IMG/VR virus record: IMGVR_UViG_3300025536_000011
Length of the DNA stretch: 64,000 bases
Direction: 5' to 3' (one strand)
Origin: a virus
Shown here one piece after another: positions 15,940 to 31,339 of this stretch; position 1 is the first letter of the stretch, and every line of letters starts with the position of its first letter. Made by a program: the position numbers and the translations under genes. A model generated the notes under the pieces. That model had not been told where the DNA came from, ran no database searches, and was given only the letters and a program-made list of their open reading frames with translations.

Positions 15940-15968
15940 AGAGTATCACGGGCTTTAGCCCGTGTCAA
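15940..15968 (-). promoter_or_regulatory. hairpin-spacer promoter
   Basis: TTGACACGGGCTAAAGCCCGTGATACTCT; stem CACGGGC/GCCCGTG. Confidence 0.8.
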
Positions 15969-17952: not shown

Positions 17953-18015
17953 CCGGAACCCGTGTCGGGCATAGCTGGCAGACTATTCTTAAGTGCCGCT
18001 CAATTGGACGCTAGA

Positions 18016-19663: not shown

Positions 19664-19691
19664 AATATATCACTTCCTAGCAGATTGTCAA
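19664..19691 (-). promoter_or_regulatory. promoter of the repeated family
   Basis: TTGACA-16-TATATT. Confidence 0.65.
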
Positions 19692-22590: not shown

Positions 22591-22619
22591 AATCTATCAC
22601 TGCCCGACAGGGCAGTCAA
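22591..22619 (-). promoter_or_regulatory. hairpin-spacer promoter with covarying stem
   Basis: TTGACTGCCCTGTCGGGCAGTGATAGATT; stem ACTGCCC/GGGCAGT. Confidence 0.8.
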
Positions 22620-22849
22620 ATTTCTCTTGCAATATTATCACTTCGACGATAGGCGACACTACCAGTATCCGAATTGAACGCGGAGCGAACATAGGTCAAG
22701 CCCTGATATTCCAGGCACAACGGCAAGCTTGAAAAGCTTGCATAATCCCGACAGTCGATATCAGGATAGATGAAACTATCGCTCGAATCAAGATCGGCAA
22801 TGACAATCTTAATCGGCAGGGCTTCGATTCGCTTCGCAGTCGTTTCCAT
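22616..22849 (-). CDS. hypothetical protein, probably leaderless
   Basis: ATG 7 nt after -10; stop within the next -35. Confidence 0.65.
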   Translation of the reverse strand: METTAKRIEALPIKIVIADLDSSDSFIYPDIDCRDYASFSSLPLCLEYQGLTYVRSAFNSDTGSVAYRRSDNIAREI

Positions 22850-22855
22850 GCCACT

Positions 22856-22884
22856 AAGATATCACGGCCCGCAAGAGCCGTCAA
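22856..22884 (-). promoter_or_regulatory. hairpin-spacer promoter
   Basis: TTGACGGCTCTTGCGGGCCGTGATATCTT. Confidence 0.8.
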
Positions 22885-22938
22885 ATAAATCTAGCCTCTA
22901 CATATATAGACGGATCGAAAATATTTTCAGGCAGTCAC

Positions 22939-22966
22939 TTGACGGCATGAAATACCGTGATACTCT
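22939..22966 (+). promoter_or_regulatory. promoter of the repeated family
   Basis: TTGACG-16-TACTCT. Confidence 0.65.
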
Positions 22967-23029
22967 GCTAGTGTCAATCGGGCACCTTGACCAATCGGCC
23001 AATGGCTCGAAATGTCGCGTGCGGCTCGA

Positions 23030-23058
23030 TTGACGCGGCCCGGTTCGCCTGATACCGG
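23030..23058 (+). promoter_or_regulatory. possible degenerate promoter of the family
   Basis: TTGACG-17-TACCGG (weak -10). Confidence 0.35.
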
Positions 23059-23116
23059 AACGGTGCCGATTATTGGCGTGGCCGGGCGGATTATCAGGAA
23101 TTCGCCCGGATTTTCC

Positions 23117-23145
23117 TTGACGGCCCGCACGGGCCGTGATACTCT
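23117..23145 (+). promoter_or_regulatory. hairpin-spacer promoter
   Basis: TTGACGGCCCGCACGGGCCGTGATACTCT. Confidence 0.8.
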
Positions 23146-23157
23146 TCTCGTGAATTA

Positions 23158-23237
23158 GTCGCCCGCCTAACCTAGTATCGCTCAATTGGTAAAGCCAGCG
23201 AGAAAGGGAAGTCGCCCAGAGCGGCCAGGCGGGCGAC
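23158..23237 (+). ncRNA. candidate 80-nt structured RNA
   Basis: 11-bp closing stem 23158-68/23227-37; internal GCTCAATTGGTAAAGC resembles a tRNA D arm; upstream promoter. Confidence 0.45.
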
Positions 23238-23409
23238 ATTTTCTCATATTGACAACCTGTGCGATTTCGCACGGGTGCGTGCGTTTCCGCTCGGTCCCGC
23301 CGCCGCGTGCGTTCCCCCGGCCGGGCCGCCCGACGAGCCCCGAAACTAATAGTAAGGCATTTCGGGAGGCTCCTGAAAATTTCCCCCCGTAAGGGCGAAT
23401 CTCTCACTT

Positions 23410-23727
23410 CTAGTATTTTTGCGGCATCGCTGCAAAGTAAGGGAAAATCTCTTGCTTACGCGATTTTTGCGTAAAATATAGCCCCATGCTATTTTTCTGC
23501 ATCGGCCCGTCGTTCGAGTCGAAAACAATATGACGATTACAGCTACAGCGAGACGGCATAAGCTGCCGCTCAATCACACGCACCGTGCCGCAAGGGCATT
23601 GTGCCCGTACAACAGTCGCACGCCATACGTCGGCCCGCTTAGTGGCTTCCTCCACCATAACGTTAGGACGGCCGCTATTGATGTCCATAGCGGCCGTAAA
23701 GAGCCGGTCAAGATCACTCATATTCAT
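23410..23727 (-). CDS. Cys-containing hypothetical protein, probably leaderless
   Basis: CPCG..CSC; ATG 7 nt after -10. Confidence 0.6.
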   Translation of the reverse strand: MNMSDLDRLFTAAMDINSGRPNVMVEEATKRADVWRATVVRAQCPCGTVRVIERQLMPSRCSCNRHIVFDSNDGPMQKNSMGLYFTQKSRKQEIFPYFAAMPQKY

Positions 23728-31075: not shown

Positions 31076-31211
31076 AATAATCCTTCGTAAGAGGTTGAGC
31101 TACGCTGTAAATGCGGGCGATTGCTGCGAAAGCGGCAAACGTAAGACCCGCTGGCGGAGGCCGTTCCATTGGGCCGGGATTCCCCCGGCCCATCTATTAA
31201 CTAAATTATAT

Positions 31212-31339
31212 GCCCGTCAACCTAGTATTAGAATTCTAGGAAGAGACGCGAAAACGGACTTAAGTAGCGTCTTTGTAGCCATCTAGGCCCGGTTCGGGGT
31301 ACAATGGTTTACCCGGTGCAATTCCGGGGGCGGGCTCCA
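31212..31339 (+). ncRNA. 128-nt tRNA-like RNA (acceptor stem, T arm, CCA; expanded central arms)
   Basis: GCCCGTC/GGCGGGC, CCCGG-TGCAATT-CCGGG, TCCA end. Confidence 0.55.

Follow-up and report, generated by a model that had tools for sequence, protein, structure and literature searches.

What occupies a stretch of 525 bases (22885-23409) that carries promoters and no evident gene, in the middle of a tightly packed array of minus-strand phage cassettes? The surrounding block is made up of small minus-strand genes, each with its own promoter, and the gap is exceptional because elsewhere in the block the stop codons often touch the next promoter. An earlier note had placed two or three plus-strand promoters in this gap, and had suggested that they might serve a small-RNA locus related to an RNA encoded at 31212. 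Our best reading, held tentatively from the sequence features described below, is that the gap encodes two lineage-specific early small RNAs that would be transcribed convergently with the upstream operon.

The DNA analysed here (the window, 64,000 nucleotides) corresponds to bases 127-64126, reverse-complemented, of an IMG/VR virus record of 177 kb that is judged to be about 75% complete. This giant phage is uncultured. It is highly abundant in one subsurface metagenome and occurs at low depth in another; these are the two sequencing runs that contain it, both of them DNA, and neither joints nor variants were seen at the locus. The GC content of the genome is about 40%, and that of the block at 13-25 kb is 45-52%.

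Searches for relatives returned little. No near or distant relative was found by blastn among 50,697 phage records, tblastn with one large neighbouring protein found none in the phage collection, and three neighbouring or conserved proteins used as queries against IMG/VR gave no close relative. None of the T4 core genes that were scanned for occurs in the window. A homologue of the 118-aa neighbour gene, 50% identical, lies on a 181-kb Logan contig from a sister phage, and this contig is absent from IMG/VR, the JGI metagenomes and the GTDB genomes. The 29 metagenome loci that we compared are distant and lack the promoter family. In IMG/VR the element motif had no match and the promoter motif had five single matches, all in records without the neighbouring gene, and Rfam had no match at gathering score, with nothing beyond noise at E <= 10. 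The 105-aa neighbour gene, for which no homologue was found, is an ORFan, and its stop codon is spanned by a 35-nt direct repeat (23389-23423 and 23437-23471) with 74% identity. The gene caller makes this protein 103 aa long, or 98% of the ORF that opens with the first ATG, at 23727. Should the two residues left out be N-terminal, translation would begin at the second ATG, 23721, and the choice between 23721 and 23727 bears on the leaderless start claimed at 23727.

The gap holds two plus-strand promoters, not three (Table 1). The pattern TTGAC-N14-GTGATA, with one mismatch allowed, has 23 copies in the window, as against about one expected. A two-block position matrix built from 15 exact promoter copies and used with a threshold of 12 bits identified 28 strong sites in the genome, whereas shuffled genomes contain 0-2 sites at or above that threshold. 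By their sequence, the members of this family are host sigma70-type early promoters of the phage. Nearly all of them lie between 6 and 51 kb in window coordinates, with a single outlier at -91427, and this range presumably marks the early region. The minus-strand promoter that had been placed at 22856 (P22884) is confirmed by its boxes and by its score of 32.1 bits; it drives a leaderless 77-aa gene, whose ATG at 22849 lies 7 nt past the -10, and stands back-to-back with P22939. The plus-strand copies proposed at 22939 and 23117 are true members of the family, with scores of 28.5 and 35.1 bits to be read against the shuffled background given above. The weak third copy proposed at 23030 is not: its score is below the threshold, its -10 is incomplete, and its TTGAC forms the 3' arm of a stem (22973-22983 with 23024-23034) whose 5' arm is formed by the first 11 bases of the predicted P22939 transcript. 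The spacing of about 90 bp noted between the copies does not reflect a tandem repeat, as none was found.

Table 1. Features of the gene-free gap and its left border, in window coordinates.
Feature	Position	Strand	Description
Promoter P22884	22884 to 22856	-	TTGACG, 17-nt spacer, TATCTT, TG before the -10; 32.1 bits
AT-rich spacer between divergent -35 boxes	22885-22938		54 bp; GC 0.35-0.40
Promoter P22939	22939-22966	+	TTGACG, spacer one base shorter, TG-n-TACTCT; 28.5 bits
Unit A, predicted non-coding transcript	~22973-23116	+	~145 nt; from P22939 to hairpin 23082-23109
Promoter look-alike	23030-23058	+	One mismatch to the pattern; <12 bits; -10 TACCGG without the final T
Promoter P23117	23117-23145	+	TTGACG; 35.1 bits; directly after the predicted unit A terminator
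Unit B, predicted non-coding transcript	~23152-23246	+	~93 nt; from P23117 to stem arm 23227-23237
Local 7-bp GC hairpin	23211-23237	both	GTCGCCC...GGGCGAC; T-rich run on either strand
GC-rich spacer	23248-23345		Not significantly folded on either strand; no coding-like ORF

Both plus-strand promoters score within the range of promoters that drive genes, and they are the sole plus-strand members among the 22 promoters of the minus-strand block at 15.4-30.5 kb. The one-base-shorter spacer of P22939 recurs in five other family members, with which it forms a sub-family, and its initial transcribed CTAGTGTC is common to P17094, P17458, P19923 and P28249, the last of which drives tRNA-Ile. P23117 has the second-highest score in the genome, behind P19175 only, and is 94-96% identical to P16295 and P22346 over 26-34 nt. 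Its spacer is a perfect palindrome (ACGGCCC-GCAC-GGGCCGT). GC-rich palindromes anchored by AC...GT are found in the promoter spacers at 15968, 16295, 22346, 22619, 23117, 26193, 30467 and 40573; the spacer sequences differ among copies yet are self-complementary (GGCCCGCATGGGCC, GGCTGCTTGCAGCC, GGCGGCTCGCCGCC, CGGCCTAATGGCCG), which points to selection for a hairpin or cruciform within the promoter and not for one operator sequence.

All other members of the family precede a Shine-Dalgarno (SD) sequence (GGAGCGAAGC) with an ATG, a leaderless ATG, or an RNA gene, the RNA genes being those for tRNA-Ile, tRNA-Arg and the RNAs at 31212, 35175 and 48152. Downstream of P22939 and P23117 we found neither an SD sequence nor a start codon at the right place. 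Codon scores are negative for all but one of the ORFs in the gap, compared with +0.26 +/- 0.06 for the training genes. The exception is a 67-codon minus-strand ORF (22927-23130) with a score of 0.10, for which we found no homologue and which is absent from a collection of 5.8 billion protein clusters. On the plus strand, an SD-like GGCTCGAAATG at 23002-23014, which resembles the GGAGCGAAAT-ATG of the phage, leads a 48-codon ORF (23012-23158). The real product of the locus could in principle be a micro-protein made from one of these two ORFs. The score of the minus-strand ORF is like that of some accepted small genes nearby, and the plus-strand ORF starts after the SD-like remnant. However, neither ORF has an SD sequence of the phage type, and no ORF in the gap has a PHROG match. 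The plus-strand ORF scores -0.10 and runs through both the predicted unit A terminator and P23117, while the minus-strand ORF lacks any counterpart in the protein searches just mentioned. A micro-protein is thus the most remote of the explanations considered here. A 169-aa minus-strand ORF across the gap was rejected, being Arg-rich and having a negative codon score. A pseudogene was rejected as well: no remnants of paralogues were detected, and six-frame pieces of the gap match only other promoter copies.

Each plus-strand promoter is followed by a folded element that ends in a terminator-like hairpin, and the predicted start sites of both units lie just 5' of their terminal stems. Unit A consists of the 5'-terminal 11-bp stem described above, a middle part and a 3' hairpin, and its predicted fold has a free energy of -64.3 kcal/mol (z -2.4). 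The hairpin at 23082-23109 has 11 pairs (-19.3 kcal/mol, z -3.1) and is followed by ATTTTCC, which abuts the -35 box of P23117; GC-rich hairpin and T run together have the layout of an intrinsic terminator. The same terminator-then-promoter junction is present before P19691, P48119 and P6063. This recurrence argues that the hairpin is a working plus-strand terminator, which in turn argues that something is transcribed into it.

In unit B, the earlier note had described an 80-nt element with an 11-bp closing stem, and a perfect inverted repeat is indeed found there (23158-23168 with 23227-23237). It encloses a 58-nt interior and is followed by ATTTTCTC. The interior contains a weak first hairpin, which holds the D-arm-like string, and then a second hairpin. 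At the start of the element, the GCCCGCCT-AACCTAGTAT string is present as described. The D-arm-like GCTCAATTGGTAAAGC is also present as a string, but the 5' half of the unit, in which it lies, has no structure of its own (z +0.5). The 95-nt stretch folds with -40 kcal/mol and z = -4.5 relative to its own shuffles, although this is only within the top ~3% of GC-matched windows genome-wide, and the significance is carried by a single long stem and a single hairpin.

The 3' arm of the unit B stem can alternatively pair with the nearer GTCGCCC at 23211. The resulting hairpin (23211-23237) has a predicted energy of -18.9 kcal/mol on the plus strand and -14.3 kcal/mol on the minus strand, where the terminator site is at 23231-23213 and is followed by TTCCCTTTCTC. 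Either this hairpin or the 11-bp stem, with ATTTTCTC behind it, has the layout of an intrinsic terminator. Because the hairpin carries a T-rich run on both strands, it could terminate both of the converging transcripts. The T runs of both units are short, with four T's followed by C, and terminator-like sites are not enriched in the 4-kb region, where 5 were found and 4.3 are expected from shuffles. A duplex scan for targets in trans gave no outlier. Within unit B, CGCTCAATTGG (23179-23189) is a perfect 11-nt complement to the 5' leader of the P18044 mRNA (17997-18007), and 9 nt of this complementarity recur in the P19175 leader; the match is a lead only, because chance alone is expected to give complementarity as long as this across the genome.

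Unit B resembles tRNAs and tRNA-like RNAs, including the 31212 RNA, in its GC-rich terminal stem built from the 5' and 3' ends and in its D-arm-like string with GG in the loop. It differs from them in having no cloverleaf, T arm or CCA, and the D-arm-like hairpin is unstable alone. Its last hairpin has a 5-nt loop, CCAGA, and ATTTT follows the stem. ARAGORN identified 7 tRNAs in the window, none of them at the locus, and Rfam gave no tRNA or clan match at E <= 10 over 22600-23700.

Unit B could nevertheless be related to the tRNA-like RNA with a CCA end at 31212-31339, as a paralogue or as a trimmed version, sharing with it an acceptor-like stem and first hairpin and entering the same pathway. 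The two RNAs match at 17/18 positions (GCCCG-C-AACCTAGTAT), or at 21/26 when the 5' flank AATTA is included, with a pairwise p of ~0.001. In both, the shared string occupies the same structural position, comprising the 5' strand of the terminal stem, AA, and the CCU(AG) start of the first hairpin. Unit A and the 31212 RNA also have a second 11-mer, GGCCCGGTTCG, exactly in common, and the two loci have a parallel layout of promoter, RNA, promoter, RNA. However, four unrelated sites in the genome, mostly in coding DNA, match unit B equally well or better, and the second 11-mer has p = 0.06 and stands in reverse order. A covariance model made from unit B and run without filters fails to recover 31212-31339 at E <= 10, and GCCCGNC-AACCTAGTAT has only five matches in IMG/VR, which are chance matches in coding DNA. 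Taken with the missing T arm and CCA and the absence of an ARAGORN or Rfam tRNA signal, these results leave the proposed relation to the 31212 RNA unsupported, and we consider kinship of the two RNAs improbable. Slightly less probable again is the broader proposal that the units are early small RNAs of a new type that act as a convergent-transcription and antisense insulator, with unit B and the 31212 RNA sharing an acceptor-stem-like module (GCCCGYC-AA-CCUAG) as a family of tRNA-end mimics. Between P31047 and the 31212 RNA, the stretch 31111-31198 (+) is rich in hairpins and ends in GGGCCGGGATTCCCCCGGCCC with a T-containing tail. Its best Rfam match, SorY, is not significant (E = 0.54), and the stretch may represent another small RNA or else a processed leader.

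The earlier idea of a small-RNA locus without a credible ORF therefore survives in part. The top-scoring promoters, the stems at the start sites, the terminator-like ends and the non-coding ORFs bear it out, whereas the promoters number two and not three, and the link to the 31212 RNA is not supported. From the promoters, stems and T runs present in the DNA, and from the lack of a coding signal, we infer the transcription of the units, the ends of their transcripts and any regulatory effect. Our tentative proposal, which we regard as a real possibility, is that the gap consists of two tandem, self-contained early units opposite to the genes, each with a promoter, a short folded non-coding RNA and a terminator-like hairpin, and that these have a role in convergent interference or antisense control. 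Each RNA would have its 5' end within or beside a long terminal stem, and this may stabilise it. Because the units converge on the minus-strand unit that starts from P23761, their most likely job would be interference together with 3'-end antisense pairing. Head-on transcription would damp read-through from P23761 into the P22884 cassette, the 3' end of the RNA would be antisense to that of the convergent mRNA, and the converging transcription would be stopped from both sides by the 23211-23237 hairpin.

Known systems show parts of this arrangement. The lambda pO promoter and its OOP RNA (PMC3985674, PMC5869508) are alike in that a host-polymerase promoter lies inside an early operon and points against it, and in that a short non-coding RNA runs to an intrinsic terminator, a feature seen here by sequence only. 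In lambda, convergent pO lowers transcription from pR (PMC3985674); lowering of the opposing promoter and 3'-end antisense overlap, which the convergent layout provides there against pR and cII, are by analogy what we propose for the present units. The differences are that the units have no sequence or structure similarity to OOP, that there are two of them in tandem, that the genome is large and of virulent type, and that no cII-like target is known. A second parallel is with the small RNAs of giant phages 201phi2-1 and phiKZ (PMC11512511), which in 201phi2-1 were defined as short units from start to termination site. These too are promoter-proximal termination units of less than 250 nt, in intergenic positions in very large phages. 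However, they were mapped by RNA sequencing, and one is kept across genera, whereas the units here are predicted from the genome sequence and have no homologue in the collections searched; 201phi2-1 and phiKZ also use their own polymerases, whereas the phage here has sigma70-type promoters. Most likely, the units extend the known class of short phage promoter-terminator RNA units by a new, lineage-specific member.

A third comparison leads to the main rival of the small-RNA reading. Promoter-early stem-loop (PeSL) elements (PMC2839356, PMC4122927) are repeated strong sigma70-like early promoters joined to stem-loop terminators in ORFan-rich regions, as here, and the module of hairpin, T run and promoter at 23082-23145 and the junctions at 19691, 48119 and 6063 have such a layout. 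In contrast to PeSLs, which carry the SD sequence and the start of the downstream ORFan and follow the orientation of their block, the modules in the gap are inverted and drive no ORF. The copies here are moreover conserved only over ~35-40 bp of promoter, and the hairpin is often inside the promoter spacer. Recombination between PeSLs is documented in T4-type phages (PMC2839356). Similar recombination among promoter and stem-loop modules could have left inverted promoters without ORFs, in which case the transcripts would be functionless and the hairpins would merely terminate them.

Several properties of the gap are consistent with such cassette debris. The intact copies at 22939 and 23117 are interspersed with decayed look-alikes, one at 23030 and another at 23250, where TTGACA and a palindrome stand without a -10. 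The SD-like GGCTCGAAATG ahead of the 48-codon ORF, with its negative coding score, may be vestigial. Inversion could be mediated by the 30-nt inverted repeat that P22884 makes with P23117, in which 80% of the bases are complementary, and the near identity of P23117 to P16295 and P22346 suggests recent exchange. The lack of any homologue of the neighbouring 105-aa gene marks a hyperplastic region. However, both promoters have the full strength of the family, with P23117 nearly the best in the genome, and each unit is closed by a hairpin and T run on the correct strand. In addition, the gap contains no detectable remnant of any paralogous gene, and the contigs of the two runs, which drop rare variants, include no inverted or deleted form. 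We therefore judge debris to be somewhat unlikely, and keep to the reading of two small RNAs.

The composition of the gap raises one further explanation, namely that it is a transcription-activated replication origin or another DNA-level site, at which the promoters, the AT-rich spacer and the GC-rich stretch would open or prime the DNA. Promoters without genes are classic at phage origins, as in T7 and T4, and count in favour of such a site, as does the AT-rich spacer between the divergent promoters. No other 95-nt window of the 177-kb genome is as rich in GC as 23248-23342, at 74% with a peak of 82% (mean 40%, sd 6.7%), and CAATCG(G) occurs three times within 60 nt at the locus. However, GC skew tracks the direction of transcription, and its cumulative curve has minima near 4.8 kb and 30.5 kb, which are strand switches, and no turn at the gap; an origin is thus not indicated. 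The GC-rich stretch shows no structure on the plus strand (z 0.0) and only a weak one on the minus strand (z -1.9), and its strand skew is weak. The locus has no iteron array or tandem repeat, and both plus-strand units would terminate before the GC-rich stretch. An origin or similar site is thus very unlikely.

In summary, the outcome is modest: the promoter count has been corrected, the reading as a tRNA-like element has been removed and that as a 31212 paralogue made unlikely, and two exact units have been defined. If the gap is cassette debris, it is an instance, outside the T4 group, of repeated promoter modules that were inverted and lost their ORFs. If instead the two units are transcribed, they are two of several promoter-driven non-coding RNAs of this phage, alongside those at 31212, 35175 and 48152, and the sole ones among these that point against an early operon. 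They would then offer a simple test case in a large phage for how head-on transcription and short RNAs may insulate or time early cassettes.
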